From a virus (lineage: Duplodnaviria > Heunggongvirae > Uroviricota > Caudoviricetes): 16,729 nt of DNA. Below, one piece after another: positions 1,839-15,198 of this stretch. The position numbers were made by a program, and so were the translations under genes. Positions within the stretch are counted from its first letter, which is position 1; the number at the start of each line of letters is the position of its first letter. The notes below the pieces were generated by a model, which saw only the letters and a list, made by a program, of their open reading frames with translations, ran no database searches and was not told where the DNA came from. The DNA lies in IMG/VR virus record IMGVR_UViG_2619619126_000011. One strand, given 5' to 3'.

Positions 1839-2897
1839 ATGAGTTTCCTTTCTGAACAAGACGTACAAAATTTAGTCATTAATAAAATGATCTTTCACGT
1901 TGTAGGTAAGAATCTTGAAGCACCGACACTTCTCAAAGAAATAAAACCAGTTCAGCATGTGGATTTTTTTCTTGAACGTATCAAATCTTCACTGAAAGGA
2001 AATCTTTTCACTTTTCTGGAGAATTCAAATACCGAAAGAATCCTGCGTATCATTAGAGATAAAGCAGATGCTGAAGCTAATTGTTTTACAGAACAATCGA
2101 AGCTACTGGCCAGTGATTTTCAGTCACACCATTCTAGCGGTAACACGAGTATGGGATGCTTTTTCTTATTTGAATTGGTTTCAGATAAGGAAAAATTCTA
2201 TGCAATTATAAAATACGATAATGAAGATGTGGTTCGTTATGTTCTTGACGAAAAGTTATCTGAAGAACAAATGCCTACTTTAGAAAGATTTCATGAAACT
2301 TTCGTAAAAAAAGCTGAGGCAATGCAAAAAATAGCGTTAATTCAACTTGATCCAAGTGGGAAAGGCGGGAAAGTTATTGTAAAAGACAGGAGTAAAAGAA
2401 CCAATATTTCAGGATATTTTAAAGGCTTCTTAAATGTTAAAAGAGTCAACTCTGAAATTGAACTTTGCAATAAGCTTATTGATGCGCTGAAAATAACCTT
2501 CAAAAGGCATAAAGAATTATTGCCAGAGTCAATTCAAAAAAGCGGCGTAAATAAAATATATGAAGTTTTAAGCAGAGCTGATTTCGAATATAATCCTGAA
2601 GATGCTTCTCCGTTATTGACCAGCATTTTTGGGCCGTTAGATGAAAAATCACCAATTCTCAACACATTCAAAACTCAAACAAAAAATGCTGGTATTGAAG
2701 GCGAATCCTTTACTATAAAAGCAGATGGCATTCATAAACCACCAAGACGAAAAATTGAAACTGCAGAAAGTGTAGTAATTAGTTATAATGAAGATGACCG
2801 TCCAGAAATAAGAAACTTAGATGATGGGCGAAAACAAATTATTGTTACTACTGCGAGGATTATTACTGATGACATCGATACTTCAAAAAATCGATGA
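1839..2897 (+). CDS. Hypothetical protein, 352 aa, soluble; gene A of the low-GC two-gene operon, with a tentative by-eye resemblance to the NdpA/YejK (NA37) nucleoid-associated protein family
   Basis: ATG at 1839 preceded by GGAG (1830-1833). The long ORF is about 30% G+C, sampled by hand on 60-nt lines. No catalytic motif recognised. The NdpA resemblance rests on short patterns such as G-F-LF and Y-FKG and is not a search result. Confidence 0.8.
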   Translation: MSFLSEQDVQNLVINKMIFHVVGKNLEAPTLLKEIKPVQHVDFFLERIKSSLKGNLFTFLENSNTERILRIIRDKADAEANCFTEQSKLLASDFQSHHSSGNTSMGCFFLFELVSDKEKFYAIIKYDNEDVVRYVLDEKLSEEQMPTLERFHETFVKKAEAMQKIALIQLDPSGKGGKVIVKDRSKRTNISGYFKGFLNVKRVNSEIELCNKLIDALKITFKRHKELLPESIQKSGVNKIYEVLSRADFEYNPEDASPLLTSIFGPLDEKSPILNTFKTQTKNAGIEGESFTIKADGIHKPPRRKIETAESVVISYNEDDRPEIRNLDDGRKQIIVTTARIITDDIDTSKNR

Positions 2898-4302
2898 GTC
2901 TATACAGGCGTCAAGGAAAGACCCTGAATTTTTGGCATCAGAATCAATAAAAAATGATTCTGCGCGCGTTCTAATTTCTGCCAAAATGGACAAAGATGCA
3001 CTCATTCTTTGGCAGTACGTTTACGAAAACGTACCAAATTGGATTGAAATTACTGTTAAAGATGACTGTAATGATGAAGTAAAACCATCGTCATGCAGTG
3101 AAGGTGATAAACTTAACATTACGCTAAAATGCATTGCATTCGAAAATAACAGGTATATTTTTACGCTCGAAGGGTGGAATGTTTTTCTACACAATGATGA
3201 TTTAGTATCAATAACCAATAAAGTGAATATTCTCGGTTTGAAACATGGATTTGAAACTTTAGGATATTCTGTTGAGCCATGGAACCATGCTCCAGAAAAA
3301 ATTGAATCTAATGAAACCGTACGAACTTCAATCAATTTACAGAGCTACGTTAAATTCTATTCTAGTGAGTTCATGCCTGCATCTGATATAGCTCCTTGGG
3401 TACTTTATAAAATGCCTGAGGCAGAGGACAACTTTTTCAAAAAATGGTTACAAGTTTCCTGCAATATGCTTTGTCGCACTCTCGTTAATGAATTATTAGC
3501 AGATGAAAAGAAATCAATTTGTTTAACTGGAAAGCCACCAAAAAAATTAATTTATGGAGATCCAGACATTCTGCTTTCCGACTATTCAGTTTTACAAACT
3601 GTAATAAACTGGATCTTTATTGAGGGCAATGAGATTGAACTCAAACATACTTTCTTCACAAGTGAGTTAGCACGAGAATGGCCAGAGTATGTATCCTTCT
3701 GTGAGGGTTTACCAAAAAAACTCCCTATGGCCTTTGAGTCAGCAAAATTACTATATAAGGCCCACATTCGCGCTAGCAGCAGAGAGACTATTAAATCTCT
3801 GTCCGATCTAAGGAAAACCTTAGCTGAAGACACGCAAAAAATAATAAGTCAGTCTAAAGACATCACATCCGCTCTTTGGAAAGATCTGGCTCTGGTTATA
3901 AGTCTATTTGCAATAAAATATGCGCTAGACGCATCAAAGATTAATATAACCAATAACATATTCCCATATATGTTCTTCGCGTTATCTATATATATTTTTA
4001 TATCTCAGGTTACAACTCTCTTCATAAATAAAAATTACTTTAAGATACTTGATAATACTAGGCTAGTCTGGAGAGATAAACTATATGGTTTTCTTGATGA
4101 TACTGACTATGAGAATCTTGCAGTCACACCATTAAGAGAAGCATACAAAGCTTATCAGATTATAGCCACATTCGTTGTGATTCTGACTTTGCTGATTTCA
4201 TTTATAATGATCATATTAGGATTCTCAATGCTTGATGAACATGCTACGAATGCAATTACCTCTTGGCTCAGTTCTCACTTAATCAATAGTTACTGTAGTT
4301 AA
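2869..4302 (+). CDS. Hypothetical protein, ~477 aa, with a soluble N-terminal region and 2-3 C-terminal transmembrane helices; gene B of the operon
   Basis: Start ATG 2869 is chosen for the GAGGA 9 nt upstream; it overlaps the gene A stop by 29 nt. The alternative start is ATGATG at 2821. Hydrophobic stretches LALVISLFAIKYAL, IFPYMFFALSIYIFISQVTTLFI and YQIIATFVVILTLLISFIMIILGFSML lie near the C-terminus. AT-rich like gene A. Confidence 0.8.
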   Translation: MTSILQKIDESIQASRKDPEFLASESIKNDSARVLISAKMDKDALILWQYVYENVPNWIEITVKDDCNDEVKPSSCSEGDKLNITLKCIAFENNRYIFTLEGWNVFLHNDDLVSITNKVNILGLKHGFETLGYSVEPWNHAPEKIESNETVRTSINLQSYVKFYSSEFMPASDIAPWVLYKMPEAEDNFFKKWLQVSCNMLCRTLVNELLADEKKSICLTGKPPKKLIYGDPDILLSDYSVLQTVINWIFIEGNEIELKHTFFTSELAREWPEYVSFCEGLPKKLPMAFESAKLLYKAHIRASSRETIKSLSDLRKTLAEDTQKIISQSKDITSALWKDLALVISLFAIKYALDASKINITNNIFPYMFFALSIYIFISQVTTLFINKNYFKILDNTRLVWRDKLYGFLDDTDYENLAVTPLREAYKAYQIIATFVVILTLLISFIMIILGFSMLDEHATNAITSWLSSHLINSYCS

Positions 4303-7812: not shown

Positions 7813-8235
7813 TCAATGCACTACGACAGAATCGCTAGGAGAACCGCCGCCGCTGAAATGTGCTTTACGGTAAACGGCCTGGACTGCATCATCATGCGCA
7901 TCAATTGCCGTACTCAGTGCATCCTGTGCCGCCAGTAATGCACGGCGTTCCAGGGTATCGAAGATGCAGAGTCGGTGACGCAGCTCGCGAGGAAGAATTG
8001 CCAGAACCGCAGGGATCAGTTTCTGAATTTTTTCCCTTTGCGCATTCGTTTCACCTTTCAACCAACGATGATAGATATTCTGCTGATTGTTCCAGTCCTT
8101 GCCTGGTACCAGGGGCAATTCGCCGCCCCCCTGGTGCAGATATTCTTCAGTAATTGCGTTAGCGACCCACGCCTGCCCTTTTTCGGCTGCCAGGGCTAAC
8201 AACACTGATTCGATGTGCTCATGCTTGATTTTCAT
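7813..8235 (-). CDS. ydaT: YdaT (cII-like prophage regulator/toxin), 140 aa
   Basis: MKIKHEHIESVLLALAAEKGQAWVANAITEEY..., with length and position as in K-12 Rac. Its start overlaps the upstream gene stop as ATGA. Confidence 0.85.
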   Translation of the reverse strand: MKIKHEHIESVLLALAAEKGQAWVANAITEEYLHQGGGELPLVPGKDWNNQQNIYHRWLKGETNAQREKIQKLIPAVLAILPRELRHRLCIFDTLERRALLAAQDALSTAIDAHDDAVQAVYRKAHFSGGGSPSDSVVVH

Positions 8236-8486
8236 GAATCAACTCCCATCAGCTTTTTCGTAGTAGTTTTATTTCTGCCAATAGTTAAAATTGCATCGGC
8301 AGAAAATAATCCGTTTGATGCATGAGCGATTTTTTCAGCGTAATATGTTTCGCCGGTATATTCTGTGCGAGGCAATTTTCCGTTATCCATCCATTTGTAG
8401 ATTGCTCTTTGGCTGACACCACAAACGTCGGCCACAACAGAAACGCGAACAGTTTTGATTACATCTTCAAGTGTTTTCTGGTTCAT
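8232..8486 (-). CDS. ydaS: Cro-like HTH regulator (positional YdaS equivalent), 84 aa from ATG 8486
   Basis: Divergent from racR and translationally coupled to ydaT. HTH segment VCGVSQRAIYKWMDNGKLP. Start 8486 has a GAGG RBS and leaves a 79-bp operator region; the ORF-track start at 8558 would leave only 7 bp. The gene symbol is positional; the length differs from what I recall for K-12 YdaS. Confidence 0.65.
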   Translation of the reverse strand: MNQKTLEDVIKTVRVSVVADVCGVSQRAIYKWMDNGKLPRTEYTGETYYAEKIAHASNGLFSADAILTIGRNKTTTKKLMGVDS

Positions 8487-8565
8487 ATCATCCTCACAAT
8501 GTGAACTTTGAGTACATGCTATAACAGAACTGACAGTACATTCAAGAGCGAATATCATTGAACTT
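8487..8565. promoter_or_regulatory. Divergent cro/racR control region with repeated AGTACAT motifs (OR-like)
   Basis: AGTACAT at 8511-8517 and 8535-8541, 24 bp apart, between the divergent start codons. Promoter elements not resolved. Confidence 0.35.
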
Positions 8566-8985
8566 ATGGTTCATGAAGATAAAGCGCGTAAAGAGTTCGC
8601 CAGTAGGCTTGCGCTAGCCTGTGAAAACGCTGGTTATGAACAACATGGAAGGCAGGCAGAAATTGCCCGTCGAATGAAATTAACACCAAAAGCGGTTAGC
8701 AAATGGTTTAATGGTGAAACAATTCCTCGCCGAGAGAAATTAAGGGAATTAGCAACACTCATTGGAACAACACCAACCTATCTTTTGGGAGAGGATACAG
8801 AAGAAAGTGGACAGATACGTTTCTATCAGGAGTTAAATCCAAGACAAAAAATCATCATTGACCTTCTGGACGAGCTCCCTGACAGTGAGACAGATGAACT
8901 TTTAAAAACTCTTGAGGAGAAAAAACAGAAGTACAATGCAATTTACGAAGAGTTAGCACGAAAGAAAAAACAAAAAGCCTCTTAA
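8566..8985 (+). CDS. racR: RacR prophage repressor (HTH, no recognisable S24 peptidase domain), 139 aa
   Basis: MVHEDKARKEFASRLALACENAGYEQHGRQAEIARRMKLTPKAVSKWFNGETIP has an HTH. It sits divergent from the cro/ydaT operon as in K-12 Rac. An in-frame stop at 8509-8511 forbids a longer N-terminus. Confidence 0.8.
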   Translation: MVHEDKARKEFASRLALACENAGYEQHGRQAEIARRMKLTPKAVSKWFNGETIPRREKLRELATLIGTTPTYLLGEDTEESGQIRFYQELNPRQKIIIDLLDELPDSETDELLKTLEEKKQKYNAIYEELARKKKQKAS

Positions 8986-9052
8986 ACCAGCATAAATCCG
9001 GTAGCGTCCCCCTCCGGGTTTGTGCTTCACTTTATCCCGTCTCATTTTTTTA

Positions 9053-9105
9053 TACATAAAATGTACTTAAAGTACTTTACAATGATGAACACAAAGTACA
9101 TTATA
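9053..9105. promoter_or_regulatory. OL-like operator/promoter candidate downstream of racR, with overlapping palindromes and AGTACAT-family motifs
   Basis: TACATAAAATGTA (9053-9065), GTACTTAAAGTAC (9063-9075), ATGTACT (9061-9067, reverse complement of AGTACAT) and AGTACAT (9095-9101), all upstream of the rightward ydaG-ydaF-kilR-racC-recET genes. Confidence 0.3.
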
Positions 9106-9272
9106 TACCTACCAACCCACCCCGCCCCACAGAACGCCGGGCAATACTTCGAGTTACCAGGCAGTGGTCAGGGGTTAAGTAGCCAGCCCGAGGCGTATGA
9201 ACATGACGGCGGGATTCAAATTTTGCAGTGCAGCAGTTAGTTCCGCCACCCGGCGTTAAGGGGATAGATAAG

Positions 9273-9407
9273 ATGGTGCATTACGAAGTAGTTCAGTATT
9301 TGATGGATTGTTGCGGTATCACTTACAACCAGGCTGTGCAGGCTTTACGCAGCAACGACTGGGATCTCTGGCAGGCAGAAGTCGCTATACGTAGCAACAA
9401 GATGTGA
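9273..9407 (+). CDS. ydaG: Small Rac prophage protein YdaG, 44 aa
   Basis: ATG 9273 preceded by AAGGGGAT, translating to MVHYEVVQYLMDCCGITYNQAVQALRSNDWDLWQAEVAIRSNKM. Below the ORF-track size cut-off. Matches K-12 Rac by position and size. Confidence 0.7.
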   Translation: MVHYEVVQYLMDCCGITYNQAVQALRSNDWDLWQAEVAIRSNKM

Positions 9408-9417
9408 GATTCGCAAA

Positions 9418-9573
9418 ATGCAAAAAATCGACCTCGGCAACAACGAATCCCTGGTGTGCGGCGTGTTCCCCAACCAGGATGGAACGTTCACTGCCATGAC
9501 GTATACCAAAAGCAAAACATTTAAAACCGAAACTGGTGCGCGCCGATGGTTGGAGAAGCACACAGTAAGCTAA
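9418..9573 (+). CDS. ydaF: Small Rac prophage protein YdaF, 51 aa
   Basis: Translating to MQKIDLGNNESLVCGVFPNQDGTFTAMTYTKSKTFKTETGARRWLEKHTVS. Its 3' end overlaps the sieB 3' end by 4 bp, convergently. The RBS is weak. Confidence 0.65.
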   Translation: MQKIDLGNNESLVCGVFPNQDGTFTAMTYTKSKTFKTETGARRWLEKHTVS

Positions 9574-10058
9574 CGATTAAAACGTCTACTCCTGCTGTTC
9601 CAGAATAACTTCATAAAATGGGAGTATTTTTCGGTGACGAGATAATAAGAACAGTTTGCGCTATCACTCTGATGTTGAATGATGCCCTTCCGTTCTAATT
9701 TTTTCATAACCGGGTTACGGCAAGGAGAAGTGATAATAAGATTTCCTGTTTTAAGGAAATCTTTAAATACAGCGATTTCTTTCTCAGATAAACGAAGCAA
9801 TACTCGTTGCTCTGGTAGTAATGAATAATGCTTTTGAATATGTGCTCGCAATCTTGTGAAGGAAATGGCGACCACGAAAGAAAAGGCAAAAACGATAATC
9901 TGAAAGAGCCAAGGTATTTCAGTATAAGCATTGAATGCGACAGTAAACTCTTTCGGTATCAGCCAGAGAGTGAGACCAAAAATGATAATCGTATACATAA
10001 GTCTTTCGAGTGGCTCGTTAGCAAAAAGTTTCAACAATGGAGTAAATACATCCAACAT
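9570..10058 (-). CDS. sieB: Superinfection exclusion protein SieB, 162 aa
   Basis: ATG at 10058 (MLDVFTPLLKLF...) followed by hydrophobic helices. Length matches K-12 SieB. The ORF-track N-terminal extension to 10181 is not supported. Confidence 0.85.
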   Translation of the reverse strand: MLDVFTPLLKLFANEPLERLMYTIIIFGLTLWLIPKEFTVAFNAYTEIPWLFQIIVFAFSFVVAISFTRLRAHIQKHYSLLPEQRVLLRLSEKEIAVFKDFLKTGNLIITSPCRNPVMKKLERKGIIQHQSDSANCSYYLVTEKYSHFMKLFWNSRSRRFNR

Positions 10059-10499
10059 ATCAATAACTCTCAACTGTAAGGGTATTGAAATGTTAACACA
10101 AGCTCTCGCTGTAGGGGTATAGCCGAGACCACCGAAGCCCGGAGGTGGTGAAATAAAACCGGGCACAACACGAAGGCGCATTTCCGATATCCATAAAGAG
10201 TCGGTCTTGTCTGTTAAATTTAAATGGTGGGAGTGCGCCTCCGGTTGTAAATAACGACATTGCTGTGTGTAGTCCTGGCGGCATCAGTTTTTTTCTTGAA
10301 GTTCGGCTGATGTCCGCCCTTTTTAAAGTGAATTTTGTGATGCGGTGAATGCGGCTAAGCGCACGTGGCACAGTTAAAAGTCATGTTAGTCCTTATTGGT
10401 TTGGGTGGGAAAGCCGACTGTAATTGTTAACTGGTTGCAGTCACCTGGAGGCACCAGGCACCGCATCAACAAAGTTCATTTGTAAAAATGGAGATAATT

Positions 10500-10721
10500 A
10501 TGATTGCACATCACTTCGGAACTGATGAAATACCACGTCAGTGTGTGACTCCTGGCGATTATGTTCTTCATGAAGGCCGGACATATATTGCCTCGGCAAA
10601 CAATATTAAAAAGCGAAAACTATATATTCGTAACCTGACCACAAAAACATGCATTACTGACCGCATGATTAAAGTCTTCCTCGGTCGTGATGGTTTACCT
10701 GTAAAGGCGGAGTCATGGTGA
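10500..10721 (+). CDS. kilR: KilR (FtsZ-inhibiting killing protein of Rac), 73 aa
   Basis: [35 protein letters not shown]..., ATG 10500 with a GGAG RBS. Confidence 0.85.
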
Positions 10722-10891
10722 TGACTAAGAAAATAAAATGTGCTTGCCACCTTTGCAAAAAAGACGTTGAAGAAAGCAAAGCTATTGAAAGAATGCTTCA
10801 CTTCATGCACGGGATTTTATCAAAAGACGAACCGAGAAAATATTGCAGTGAAGCTTGTGCCGAAAAAGACCAGATGGCACATGAACTTTAA
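10721..10891 (+). CDS. ydaE: YdaE, small zinc-ribbon-like protein, 56 aa
   Basis: ATG overlaps the kilR stop (TGATG) and translates to [56 protein letters not shown]. Below the ORF-track cut-off. Confidence 0.7.
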   Translation: MTKKIKCACHLCKKDVEESKAIERMLHFMHGILSKDEPRKYCSEACAEKDQMAHEL

Positions 10892-10965
10892 TTAATTGAC
10901 TATTCGAAACTGAATTTATGCCAGAAATGGCAGGTATTCGCTCAACCTTAATTAAGGAGAAAAAC

Positions 10966-11241
10966 ATGATTACCAATTATGAAGCCACTGTTGTAACTAC
11001 CGATGACATTGTTCACGAGGTGAATCTGGAAGGAAAGCGCATTGGCTACGTAATTAAAACAGAAAATAAAGAAACCCCATTCACTGTGGTTGATATCGAT
11101 GGTCCATCAGGCAACGTAAAAACACTTGATGAAGGTGTCAAAAAAATGTGCCTGGTGCATATCGGAAAGAATCTGCCCGCAGAAAAAAAAGCCGAATTTC
11201 TGGCAACTCTAATTGCAATGAAATTAAAAGGTGAAATCTGA
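10966..11241 (+). CDS. racC: RacC, 91 aa
   Basis: ATG 10966 preceded by an AAGGAG RBS (MITNYEATVVTTDDIVHEV...). Length and position as in K-12 Rac. Confidence 0.85.
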   Translation: MITNYEATVVTTDDIVHEVNLEGKRIGYVIKTENKETPFTVVDIDGPSGNVKTLDEGVKKMCLVHIGKNLPAEKKAEFLATLIAMKLKGEI

Positions 11242-11246
11242 AAGAA

Positions 11247-11271
11247 ATAGCCTGCGTATGGCGCAGGCTAT
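11247..11271 (+). other. Strong hairpin between racC and recE (10-bp stem ATAGCCTGCG / CGCAGGCTAT, 5-nt loop)
   Basis: Perfect inverted repeat starting 6 bp after the racC stop. No U-tract follows, so it is not a canonical intrinsic terminator; it may be an attenuator, an RNA stability element or a protein site. Confidence 0.35.
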
Positions 11272-11342
11272 GAACAGTGTGTATCCGGCAAGATCATTCA
11301 CTGAACAAAACGAATTTTAATCTGAGTTGAGGTTAAAAAACA

Positions 11343-13943
11343 ATGAGCACAAAACCACTCTTCCTGTTACGGAAAGCGAAAAAATCATCCGGTGAACCTG
11401 ACGTCGTCCTGTGGGCAAGCAACGATTTTGAATCGACCTGTGCCACTCTGGACTACCTGATCGTTAAGTCAGGTAAAAAACTGAGCAGCTATTTTAAAGC
11501 TGTTGCCACGAATTTTCCTGTCGTTAATGACCTGCCCGCTGAAGGTGAGATCGATTTTACCTGGAGTGAACGCTATCAACTCAGCAAAGACTCCATGACA
11601 TGGGAACTAAAACCGGGAGCAGCACCAGACAACGCTCACTATCAAGGCAATACCAACGTCAACGGCGAAGACATGACTGAGATTGAGGAGAATATGCTAC
11701 TCCCAATTTCTGGCCAGGAACTGCCCATTCGTTGGCTTGCTCAACACGGCAGCGAAAAACCGGTAACGCACGTTTCACGCGACGGACTCCAGGCATTACA
11801 CATTGCTCGGGCTGAAGAACTACCGGCTGTTACTGCCCTGGCTGTTTCCCACAAAACCAGCCTGCTCGACCCGCTGGAAATTCGCGAACTCCACAAACTG
11901 GTTCGTGACACTGACAAAGTTTTCCCTAATCCTGGTAATTCAAACCTGGGACTGATAACTGCTTTTTTCGAAGCATACCTGAACGCTGACTACACCGATC
12001 GAGGACTGCTGACAAAAGAGTGGATGAAGGGTAATCGTGTTTCACACATCACTCGCACGGCTTCCGGTGCTAATGCTGGCGGCGGAAACCTCACCGATCG
12101 CGGCGAAGGTTTCGTACACGATCTGACGTCACTGGCGCGCGACGTAGCCACTGGCGTACTGGCCCGTTCAATGGATCTGGACATCTATAACCTTCATCCG
12201 GCACACGCTAAACGCATTGAGGAAATTATCGCTGAAAATAAACCGCCCTTTTCTGTTTTCCGCGACAAATTCATCACCATGCCTGGCGGGCTGGATTATT
12301 CCCGCGCCATCGTGGTTGCGTCCGTAAAAGAAGCACCAATTGGGATCGAGGTCATCCCCGCGCACGTCACTGAATATCTGAACAAAGCACTGACTGAAAC
12401 CGATCATGCCAACCCTGATCCGGAAATCGTGGATATTGCCTGCGGTCGCTCCTCTGCCCCGATGCCGCAGCGAGTAACAGAAGAAGGAAAACAGGATGAT
12501 GAAGAAAAACCGCAACCATCTGGAACAACGGCAGTTGAACAGGGAGAGGCTGAAACAATGGAACCGGACGCAACTGAACATCATCAGGACACGCAGCCGC
12601 TGGATGCTCAGTCACAGGTAAATTCTGTTGATGCGAAATATCAGGAACTGCGGGCAGAACTCCATGAAGCCCGGAAAAACATTCCATCAAAAAATCCTGT
12701 CGATGCCGATAAATTGCTTGCTGCATCACGTGGTGAATTTGTTGACGGAATTAGCGACCCGAACGATCCGAAATGGGTAAAGGGGATCCAGACTCGCGAT
12801 TGTGTGTACCAGAACCAGCCAGAAACGGAAAAAACCAGCCCAGATATGAATCAACCTGAGCCAGTAGTGCAACAGGAACCGGAAATAGCCTGCAATGCCT
12901 GCGGCCAGACTGGCGGGGGTAACTGCCCTGACTGTGGGGCGGTGATGGGCGACGCAACATACCAGGAAACATTCGATGAAGAGAGTCAGGTTGAAGCTAA
13001 GGAAAATGATCCGGAGGAAATGGAAGGCGCTGAACATCCGCACAATGAGAATGCTGGCAGCGATCCGCATCGCGATTGCAGTGATGAAACTGGCGAAGTC
13101 GCAGATCCCGTAATCGTAGAAGACATAGAGCCAGGTATTTATTACGGAATTTCGAATGAGAATTACCACGCGGGTCCCGGTATCAGTAAGTCTCAGCTCG
13201 ATGACATTGCTGATACTCCGGCACTATATTTGTGGCGTAAAAATGCCCCCGTGGACACCACAAAGACAAAAACGCTCGATTTAGGAACTGCTTTCCACTG
13301 CCGGGTACTTGAACCGGAAGAATTCAGTAACCGCTTTATCGTAGCACCTGAATTTAACCGCCGTACAAACGCCGGAAAAGAAGAAGAGAAAGCGTTTCTG
13401 ATGGAATGCGCAAGCACAGGAAAAACGGTTATCACTGCGGAAGAAGGCCGGAAAATTGAACTCATGTATCAAAGCGTTATGGCTTTGCCGCTGGGGCAAT
13501 GGCTTGTTGAAAGCGCCGGACACGCTGAATCATCAATTTACTGGAAAGATCCTGAAACAGGAATTTTGTGTCGGTGCCGTCCGGACAAAATTATCCCTGA
13601 ATTTCACTGGATCATGGACGTGAAAACTACGGCGGATATTCAACGATTCAAAACCGCTTATTACGACTACCGCTATCACGTTCAGGATGCATTCTACAGT
13701 GACGGTTATGAAGCACAGTTTGGAGTGCAGCCAACTTTCGTTTTTCTGGTTGCCAGCACAACTATTGAATGCGGACGTTATCCGGTTGAAATTTTCATGA
13801 TGGGCGAAGAAGCAAAACTGGCAGGTCAACAGGAATATCACCGCAATCTGCGAACCCTGTCTGACTGCCTGAATACCGATGAATGGCCAGCTATTAAGAC
13901 ATTATCACTGCCCCGCTGGGCTAAGGAATATGCAAATGACTAA
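11343..13943 (+). CDS. recE: RecE (exonuclease VIII), full length, 866 aa
   Basis: [30 protein letters not shown]... Length matches K-12 RecE. It sits directly upstream of recT with the stop overlapping the recT start. Confidence 0.95.
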
Positions 13944-14801: not shown

Positions 14802-14996
14802 ATGAGATATGACAATGTTAAACCATGTCCATTTTGTGGTTGTCCATCAGTAACGGTGAAAGCCATTTCAGGATATTACCGAGCGAAGTGTAACGGATGC
14901 GAATCCCGAACCGGTTATGGTGGAAGTGAAAAAGAAGCACTCGAAAGATGGAATAAACGAACCACTGGAAATAATAATGGAGGTGTTCATGTATAA
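14802..14996 (+). CDS. ralR: Restriction alleviation protein Lar/RalR, 64 aa
   Basis: MRYDNVKPCPFCGCPSVTVKAISGYYRAKCNGCESRTGYGGSEKEALERWNKR, with CxxC...CxxC. Position is downstream of recT as in Rac. Confidence 0.85.
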   Translation: MRYDNVKPCPFCGCPSVTVKAISGYYRAKCNGCESRTGYGGSEKEALERWNKRTTGNNNGGVHV

Positions 14997-15198
14997 AATT
15001 ACCGCCACTATTGAAAAGGAAGGTGGCACTCCTACTAACTGGACAAGATATTCAAAATCTAAACTAACGAAATCAGAATGCGAAAAAATGCTCTCAGGTA
15101 AAAAAGAAGCAGGCGTTTCCAGAGAGCAGAAAGTAAAACTGATAAATTTTAATTGCGAGAAACTTCAGTCCTCGAGAATTGCATTGTATTCAAATTAA
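14989..15198 (+). CDS. ydaC: YdaC (RcbA), 69 aa
   Basis: ATG 14989 with a GGAGGT RBS (MYKITATIEKEGGTPTNWTRYSKSKLTKSECEKMLSGKKEAG...). It overlaps the ralR 3' end. Confidence 0.8.
   Translation: MYKITATIEKEGGTPTNWTRYSKSKLTKSECEKMLSGKKEAGVSREQKVKLINFNCEKLQSSRIALYSN

Follow-up and report, generated by a model that had tools for sequence, protein, structure and literature searches.

A 16,729-nucleotide stretch of viral DNA (Caudoviricetes; IMG/VR record IMGVR_UViG_2619619126_000011) contains a Rac-like prophage in which AGTACAT-family motifs lie on both sides of a repressor gene. Which regulator do these motifs serve, and is it RacR, as the position of the gene would suggest? This 16.7-kb stretch is referred to below as the window, and all coordinates are in window numbering. 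The earlier note on this DNA called the gene racR and the motifs lambda-like right and left operator candidates (OR and OL) flanking it. The statistics of the motif, an architecture of the 933W/HK022 type, an evolutionary footprint, and a joint replacement relative to K-12 all support the second of these claims; the gene, as described below, is a different one. We put at roughly 85% the probability that this is an HK022/933W-type lambdoid immunity region, with the two clusters of motifs as its right and left operators and a non-cleavable repressor for which induction by an antirepressor is the best guess.

The heptamer AGTACAT occurs exactly four times in the whole window, at 8511-8517, 8535-8541, and 9095-9101 on the plus strand and at 9061-9067 on the minus strand, and this exact-match count agrees with the copies first seen at 8511 and 8535 and in the downstream cluster. 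The expected number is 1.36, and at least four copies occurred in 8 of 200 shuffled sequences; the number of heptamers is by itself weakly significant, and the signal is carried by their clustering. A repeat analysis showed that AGTACAT belongs to a longer unit: TGAACTTTGAGTACAT, AGAACTGACAGTACAT, and TGAACACAAAGTACAT align across 22 nt, ATGTACTTAAAGTAC pairs in the alignment with ATGAACACAAAGTAC, and the start-to-start distance of the repeats is 24 bp in both regions. The heptamer supplies the right half of a pseudo-palindrome of 13 bp, G(A/T)AC-N5-GT(A/T)C. When this motif was searched for as GWAC-N5-GTWC, with its expectation and 200 shuffles as the null, six sites were found in the window against 0.58 expected (about 10-fold), a number reached in 0 of the 200 shuffles. 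Five of the six strict sites lie inside the two regulatory regions, at 8503, 8527, 8560, 9063, and 9087, with their centres at 8509, 8533, and 8566 in OR (24 and 33 bp apart) and at 9069 and 9093 in OL (24 bp apart). G(A/T)AC is the sequence of all 10 half-sites of these five operators; at position 6, eight have T, one has C, and one has A. The predicted binding unit is a 13-15-bp pseudo-palindrome, tG(A/T)AC-N5-GT(A/T)Ca. The sixth strict site, GAACAAGACGTAC at 1854-1866, lies 15 nt inside the open reading frame (ORF) at 1839-2897 and is at chance level (0.58 per window).

OR consists of three sites within the 79-bp intergenic region and the start codon, between the divergent repressor and cro-like genes, and OL consists of two sites at 9063-9099. 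Two right-hand sites had been described previously; the third, GAACTTATGGTTC at 8560-8572, was overlooked because it lacks AGTACAT. The overlapping palindromes described on the other side of the repressor gene are both present, GTACTTAAAGTAC at 9063-9075 and TACATAAAATGTA at 9053-9065. The former is OL2, whereas the latter was rejected as a separate operator or third OL site because its left arm is unconserved in six relatives; all that they keep of it is the right arm (the OL2 half-site), together with an A-tract. No third OL site with one mismatch or fewer was found between the repressor stop codon and OL2, nor was any site found beyond cro. The operators, the predicted right and left early promoters (PR and PL), the predicted promoter resembling that for repressor maintenance (PRM), and the genes concerned are as follows.

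8503-8515: OR1, a strict motif match within the 15-mer GAACTTTGAGTAC (8502-8516), over the predicted PR start region.
8527-8539: OR2, GAACTGACAGTAC, a strict motif match that occupies the PR spacer and holds the -35 element of the repressor promoter.
8560-8572: OR3, a strict motif match whose centre is the repressor ATG at 8566-8568.
9063-9075: OL2, a strict motif match adjoining the PL -35 element.
9087-9099: OL1, GAACACAAAGTAC, a strict motif match within the PL spacer that overlaps the PL -10 element.
8518-8523, minus strand: predicted PR -10 element, TATAGC (alternatively TAGCAT at 8516-8521), homologous in position to that of HK022 TTGACT-16-CATAAT.
8540-8545, minus strand: predicted PR -35 element, TTGAAT, homologous in position to HK022 TTGACT in a gapless alignment.
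8530-8558, plus strand: predicted PRM-like promoter, CTGACA-17-TATCAT, from the promoter scan (10/12 match).
9076-9104, plus strand: predicted PL, TTTACA-17-CATTAT, from the promoter scan (9/12 match), reading toward ydaG, ydaF, kilR, ydaE, racC, and recE.
8232-8486, minus strand: cro-like gene, 84 amino acids (aa), a coding sequence annotated in NZ_AP022536.
8566-8985, plus strand: repressor gene, 139 aa.
7813-8235, minus strand: ydaT, the CII analogue, 94% identical to K-12 YdaT.
8225-8242, minus strand: YdaT box, TTGATTcatgaaAATCAA, enclosing the ydaT start codon at the cassette's left edge; a perfect match, read from the sequence.
8242-9109: immunity cassette (868 bp) comprising the cro-like gene, OR, the repressor gene, and OL/PL, in place of the K-12 ydaS-racR cassette.

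The two ORFs, as they had been read from the letters, agree with the RefSeq annotation of a near-identical locus, and the YdaT box matches the published forms TTGATT-N6-AATCAA and ATGATT-N6-AATCAA (PMC9986795, PMC11879457). The promoter scanner returned two plus-strand promoter-like sites in these regions, the PRM-like promoter and PL. The -10 element of the former ends 8 nt before the repressor ATG, and no Shine-Dalgarno sequence is present, which suggests that the repressor mRNA is leaderless; its start codon is probably also the start of transcription. There are precedents for such leaderless messages in lambda cI and paaR2 (PMC8630535).

The layout is conserved well beyond the window. Conservation was assessed in a gapless alignment of seven loci, in which the repressors of the relatives are 62-89% identical to the window protein. 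The same arrangement of three plus two sites with identical spacing was present in relatives from E. coli metagenomes (89%), in Salmonella (65% and 62%), and in relatives bearing an S24 peptidase domain from Raoultella, Klebsiella phage Kp4864-1, and Citrobacter phage Omnitron, and each relative locus of 4.5-6.7 kb contained one or two other strict sites at most. The position of OR1 and the 24-bp spacing between OR1 and OR2 are the same in HK022, the 933W type, and six other relatives. The full geometry, with 32-33 bp between OR2 and OR3, recurs in GQ499361, HK022, and seven further loci. Across the seven loci, OR2 reads GAACTGA.AGT.CA almost invariantly, OL2 (TGTACT...GTACTTTACA) and the PL -35 element TTTACA are invariant, and the -10 elements of PL (CAT.AT) and PRM (TAT.AT) are kept. 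Half-site cores were conserved at 98-100%, whereas the central five bases were conserved at 70-83% and the surroundings at 72-76%. In pairwise comparisons, 45/45 half-site positions but 60/82 other non-coding positions were identical in the 89% relative, L009 (p=3e-5; dS, the synonymous divergence, of the repressor gene is ~1), 43/45 versus 43/82 in Salmonella locus L006 (p=1e-7), and 43/45 versus 47/82 in Raoultella locus L011 (p=1.5e-6). OR1 of L009 reads AGTACAA yet its 13-mer is intact; the heptamer is not the conserved unit. When one genome per species was scanned with the composite pattern OR1-N11-OR2-N20-GWACNNATGGTTC, 75 loci from 75 species (L018-L092) were recovered from Pseudomonas, Halomonas, Salinicola, Vibrio, Acinetobacter, and Enterobacterales, and all 75 then carried an ORF that starts with MV(Q/H) and contains TPKAxSKW(L/F)N. 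Codons 2-3 of the repressor (Val-His/Gln) are fixed because the right half-site of OR3, GGTTCA, forms them, and this was the case in 75/75 loci. The operator family is old and widespread, with a geometry kept across Gammaproteobacteria to the point of forcing the first three residues of the repressor.

The 139-aa repressor consists of a helix-turn-helix (HTH) domain (residues ~1-75), a disordered linker, and a two-helix tail of the DicA/GtgR type (~92-138). In the AlphaFold model (mean predicted local distance difference test score, pLDDT, 80), the HTH domain has five helices, residues 79-88 form the disordered linker, and the tail helices span 92-103 and 106-138. Residues 1-102 at most (to residue 73-102) are homologous to the N-terminal domains of three repressor groups: the HTH domain is 46% identical to that of HK022 cI (E 9e-32) and 51% identical to that of the 933W-type cI over residues 1-73, and the identity with S24-peptidase repressors of Klebsiella and Raoultella is 62-72%. 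K42, V44, S45, K46, W47, and F48 are identical to the 933W repressor, in which K42 and K46 contact bases (PMC3317979), and S41 is replaced by Pro. The homology to S24-bearing forms stops near residue 102, at their cleavage-site region (...IDVLDIAVSAGPG...). The long relatives sampled and HK022 cI match PF00717 (Peptidase_S24), and 55 of 67 complete family ORFs have at least 175 aa; in the window protein, Pfam returned HTH domains only and no S24 peptidase domain, which bears out its earlier description as an HTH protein without an autocleavage domain. Its C-terminal part instead resembles DicA (E 8e-15, residues 30-137) and Gifsy-2 GtgR (E 4e-10, residues 11-108), with which the tail has in common the motif L-x-P-(K/R)-x3-(I/L)(I/L)-x-L(L/F)-x2-LP(D/E)(S/A)E, and phrog_5736 matches residues 27-139 end to end. 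A sequence search of the PDB gave weak matches for the HTH domain only (P22 C2 and 434) and none for the tail. For the cro-like protein, the identity is 62% with HK022 Cro and 46% with 933W Cro. A few family members from Halomonas, Salinicola, and Neptuniibacter likewise have only 152-174 aa, and their tails bear no relation to the DicA type; the short forms suggest that the S24 domain was repeatedly lost or replaced. The phage vB_EcoS-673R7, which has an identical repressor, was rejected as evidence for an inducible phage: it is a prophage predicted from a clinical genome.

The architecture of this protein bears on the rival explanation that survives best, in which the Cro-like protein or YdaT is the main or sole occupant of the sites; the 139-aa protein would then be what is left of a cleavable cI after decay, and the operators would be relics. 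The protein does indeed lack the domain through which most relatives dimerize and cooperate, and in lambdoid phages Cro shares the operators of the repressor; such co-use by the Cro-like protein is, however, expected and already part of the explanation that we prefer. The tail does not behave as debris. Relative to L009, its ratio of non-synonymous to synonymous substitution rates (dN/dS) is 0.017, compared with 0.051 for the HTH domain, with 17.5 synonymous versus 2.5 non-synonymous differences; under such strong purifying selection it is not a frameshift relic. It is also homologous to the tails of DicA and GtgR, which are functional repressors, and is predicted with confidence to form a helical hairpin, and the exact protein is found, under generic database names, on at least 1000 contigs. 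K-12 YdaT does bind within the racR-ydaS intergenic region (PMC11879457), but the YdaT box has a different sequence and is separately present at 8225-8242. Moreover, the operators co-vary with the repressor/cro cassette and not with ydaT, and they are present in HK022 and 933W, neither of which has YdaT. We consider this explanation improbable.

A second rival holds that the sites are RacR operators, that is, AGTACAT-family sites bound by a K-12-type Rac repressor on both sides of racR. The backbone of the prophage is certainly Rac-like, with ydaT, ydaF, sieB, kilR, racC, recET, and intR next to ttcA, and the gene occupies the position of racR; a near-identical locus in E. coli THO-008 carries the same type of annotation (ydaT, ydaV, ydaF, sieB, kilR, ydaE, racC, recE, recT, ralR, xisR, and intR). 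The immunity cassette, on the other hand, is foreign to K-12 Rac: blastn gave 92% identity over 7815-8241 (ydaT) and 99.7% identity over 9110-13729, but no DNA homology over 8242-9109. The alignment of the 139-aa protein with K-12 RacR is confined to an HTH stretch of 33 residues, 12 of them identical, and the identification of the gene as racR does not hold. The cro-like protein has 6 of 18 aligned residues in common with K-12 YdaS, essentially nothing, and the assignment of its gene as ydaS was likewise rejected. The footprinted RacR operators read (T/A)TAGGC-N3-GCCTA(T/A) (PMC5700373, PMC9638921), and the whole window contains no TTAGGC and no GCCTAA. A comparison with published RacR binding data, as had been proposed, would be misleading when RacR operators are absent; the data to consult are those on the repressors of HK022 and 933W. 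The sequence refutes this second rival, and an involvement of RacR at these sites is highly improbable.

The same comparison serves as a natural swap experiment. Along with the repressor, the motifs on both sides of it were exchanged, but ydaT on the flank and the genes transcribed from PL remained Rac-like, which argues that the motifs are the operators of this repressor. Judged by its sequence, the gene at the racR position is not racR and the prophage lies outside the RacR regulon. At a coverage of at least 80%, 1047 of 5426 complete E. coli genomes contain the immunity module, O111 and O157 strains among them. An easy annotation error is thereby corrected: a sizeable fraction of Rac-like prophages carries a heteroimmune HK022/933W-type cassette and not the K-12 racR-ydaS switch, and because the cassette is heteroimmune, results on RacR operators, essentiality, and cross-talk are not transferable to such prophages. 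Exact operator and promoter coordinates are now given for the cassette.

The ends of the cassette coincide with regulatory sites, the left junction (8241/8242) with the YdaT box and the right junction (9109/9110) with approximately +1 of PL. In K-12 (L001, NC_000913.3), the segment from the racR stop codon to ydaG that corresponds to window positions 9050-9110 reads cATTAGGCataGCCTAtTGACAatcaaTTAGGCattACCTATAGT, in which two TTAGGC-N3-(G/A)CCTA repeats bracket and fill a near-consensus TTGACA-17-TATAGT promoter. This segment would be the OL/PL analogue for RacR. The RacR literature searched describes only the sites in the racR-ydaS intergenic region, yet the loss of RacR derepresses kilR, ydaG, and ydaF. 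Downstream of the right junction, the leader of ~170 nt between PL and ydaG (9110-9275) is 86-99% identical in 3799 E. coli records, many more than carry the cassette; no Rfam match at the gathering threshold or at E<=1 was found for a structured RNA in this leader, and its predicted fold, with a z-score of -1.5, is little better than those of shuffled sequences.

The third and weakest rival, that the motif clusters arose by chance in AT-rich promoter DNA and serve no protein binding, can draw on the AT-rich promoter character of both regions and on the modest heptamer count (8/200 shuffles), but it deserves next to no credence given the 10-fold enrichment of the 13-mer (0/200 shuffles), the 24/33/24-bp spacings fixed across genera, the half-site cores kept while the central 5 bp and flanks vary, and sites of the same kind as the annotated 933W-type operators (PMC3317979).

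In the mechanism that we propose for an HK022/933W-type immunity region, the 139-aa repressor would bind as a dimer to the five predicted sites. The Cro-like protein is predicted to share these five sites, as in other lambdoid phages. OR1 and OR2 would mask the start region and spacer of the promoter that serves the operon of the cro-like gene, ydaT, and replication genes, and OR2 would in addition hold the -35 element of the repressor's own promoter, which occupancy of OR3 at high repressor levels may shut off. On the other side, OL2 and OL1 would bracket the -35 element and fill the spacer of PL, which is predicted to serve ydaG, ydaF, kilR, ydaE, racC, and recE. With all five sites occupied, both early operons would be silent, and the loss of the repressor would release both. 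In K-12, depletion of the resident repressor derepresses ydaS/T, kilR, ydaG, ydaF, ydaE, and racC (PMC11014345; bioRxiv 10.64898/2026.09.06.749655), and by analogy with this loss of the Rac repressor, the earlier suggestion that derepression here would release kilR and ydaT is reasonable.

How the repressor would be inactivated is a separate matter. RecA-stimulated self-cleavage is implausible because a DicA/Gifsy-type tail replaces the S24 peptidase domain, and it is excluded as far as sequence can tell. The homology of this tail to repressors that are not cleaved is also good ground for the earlier judgement that LexA-like self-cleavage is unlikely. Small antirepressors release these proteins, Rem acting on DicA and the LexA-controlled GfoA, GfhA, and GftA on the Gifsy repressors (PMC10448788, PMC3121763), and the antirepressor sometimes comes in trans from another prophage (PMC3121763). 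By analogy, our best guess is that the inducer is an antirepressor, possibly supplied in trans by another prophage; this is the weakest step of our interpretation.

Several points weigh against the proposed scheme, most of them at this last step. No Rem-like ORF was found when the window and loci L002 and L004 (segments of related prophages) were searched with K-12 Rem by tblastn, which returned noise only; the sequences searched span neither the entire prophage, its late region included, nor the remainder of the host genome with its other prophages. The window contains no perfect LexA box (CTGT-N8-ACAG), and boxes with one mismatch number eight against 4.7 expected, which is chance level. Among the neighbouring window ORFs, no antirepressor PHROG was detected; they belong to Q-like, Ren-like, and unknown families. 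At the right operator, the PR hexamers (TTGAAT-16-TATAGC) are weak and lie below the threshold of the promoter scanner, and PR is a promoter that we infer. OR2 is centred near -33 of PRM, an unusual position for an activator, because of which positive autoregulation cannot be assumed. The compared loci share kinship, which means that the footprint statistics are not fully independent. Finally, no paper and no binding, transcription-start, or reporter data on this allele were found in the literature searched.

The recognition helix of the repressor and its operators are nearly those of HK022, and the operator core is common with 933W. It is conceivable, if doubtful, that the repressor is a natural domain swap, in which a DNA-binding domain of HK022/933W specificity passed from a RecA-cleavable S24 protein to a non-cleavable DicA/Gifsy-type tail while all five operators were retained, and that, with the module in about a fifth of complete E. 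coli genomes, it could act in trans as an SOS-resistant repressor on phages of HK022/933W immunity. If so, the domain-swapped protein would give superinfection immunity and damp the induction of co-resident or incoming phages, some Shiga-toxin phages among them; conversely, the cleavable repressors of phages of HK022/933W immunity could hold the window prophage silent. The exchange of an S24 tail for a DicA-type tail would be a natural case of a switch that changes its induction input and keeps its DNA-recognition part, and it raises the question of cross-immunity with 933W-type Stx phages.

Elsewhere in the window, Rfam identified the sok antisense RNA of a hok/sok system at 1504-1678 and the RalA antitoxin small RNA of ralR/ralA at 14995-15173, both on the minus strand; both are toxin-antitoxin RNAs of a kind expected in a prophage. 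Between the hok module and the gene for the Q-like antiterminator, two plus-strand ORFs of 352 and 493 aa occupy 1839-4302. The former (1839-2897) is annotated as a nucleoid-associated protein and the latter has no PHROG match, and the pair resembles an accessory insertion within the nin region.

Among known systems, HK022 is very close to the window in its DNA-binding features. The immunity region of HK022 was reportedly described by Carlson and Little in 1993 (cited in PMC8053113) as containing cI, cro, OR1-3, OL, and O_FR. Its operator core, G(A/T)AC-N5-GT(A/T)C, is identical to that of the window, its OR3 15-mer TGAACTTATGGTTCA is identical to the window's and is also centred on the repressor ATG, and its sites are spaced identically (24/33 bp in OR, 24 bp in OL). 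The promoters are placed likewise, the PL -35 element TTTACA lying between OL2 and OL1 and the PRM -35 element within OR2, and the recognition helix reads TPKAVSKWFNGETIPR in the window and TPKAISKWFNGESIPR in HK022. However, HK022 cI, which binds cooperatively and loops OL to OR (PMC8053113), has 235 aa and an S24 peptidase domain, whereas the window repressor has 139 aa and none. A distant OL3 and, past cro, one further site (a strict match at L005 2948) are present in HK022 but not found in the window, and the window differs from HK022 in having YdaT as the CII analogue and a Rac-like backbone.

The 933W type, named after a Shiga-toxin phage whose immunity region was studied by the Koudelka and Friedman laboratories, has the same core. 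In the 933W-type immunity region GQ499361, the annotated operators are OR1 CGTACTGAAAGTACG, OR2 AAAACTTTCAGTTCA, OR3 TGAACCATGAGTACG, OL1 TGAACCAATAGTTCGA, and OL2 CAAGAACTATTGGTAC, with centres 24/32 bp apart in OR and 24 bp apart in OL, and OR3 overlaps the cI ATG. The 933W operator is a 15-bp symmetric site that depends critically on positions 2-5 (G, A/T, A, C) and has a preference for T or C at position 6 (PMC3317979). Like the window, 933W has three OR and two OL sites, and it is reported to lack OL3 (PMC5977221). Induction in 933W proceeds by self-cleavage of cI, which, unlike the window repressor, carries an S24 domain; residue 41 of 933W cI, which contacts G at position 2, is Ser instead of Pro. 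The OR2-OR3 spacing is 32 bp in 933W and 33 bp in the window, and OR2 of 933W is degenerate (AAAC...GTTC), whereas all five sites of the window are canonical.

Two other systems resemble the window in genetic setting and differ in operators. K-12 Rac has the same backbone, gene order, and YdaT box, and its repressor gene is flanked by its own operators on both sides, but its RacR (158 aa) and YdaS are unrelated, its operators read TTAGGC-N3-GCCTAA, and its intergenic region measures 123 bp compared with 79 bp in the window. The PaaR2/YdaS/YdaT system of CP-933P (PMC8630535) likewise belongs to a cryptic lambdoid prophage; its repressor gene is leaderless, its CII analogue is YdaT, and its OR and OL/PL analogues are regulated by both the repressor and the Cro analogue. 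Its operators are 18-bp GTTTAGTAA palindromes, four in OR and three in OL, and were rejected as a match to the window sites, being a different motif. In CP-933P, the toxin-antitoxin pair paaA2-parE2 follows paaR2; at this position, between the repressor gene and OL/PL, the Salmonella relatives of the window carry a higB-higA toxin-antitoxin pair (L006 3553-4220; L007 3588-4255).

DicA of Qin and the Gifsy repressors GtgR, GfoR, and GfhR are like the window repressor in size (135-139 aa), in consisting of an HTH domain and a short helical tail, and in having neither an Ala-Gly cleavage site nor an S24 domain. Their genes also occupy the same genetic position, divergent from a cro-like gene and followed by a DUF1391 gene and division inhibitors. 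The DNA-binding domain of the window repressor is far closer to HK022/933W cI than to DicA, which is P22 C2-like, or to GtgR, and because of this its operators differ from those of DicA and GtgR. Compared in this way, the window system is of the HK022/933W type in its operators, their geometry, and its DNA-binding domain and departs from that type in its missing S24 domain, by which the repressor, as its sequence indicates, belongs with the DicA/Gifsy class.

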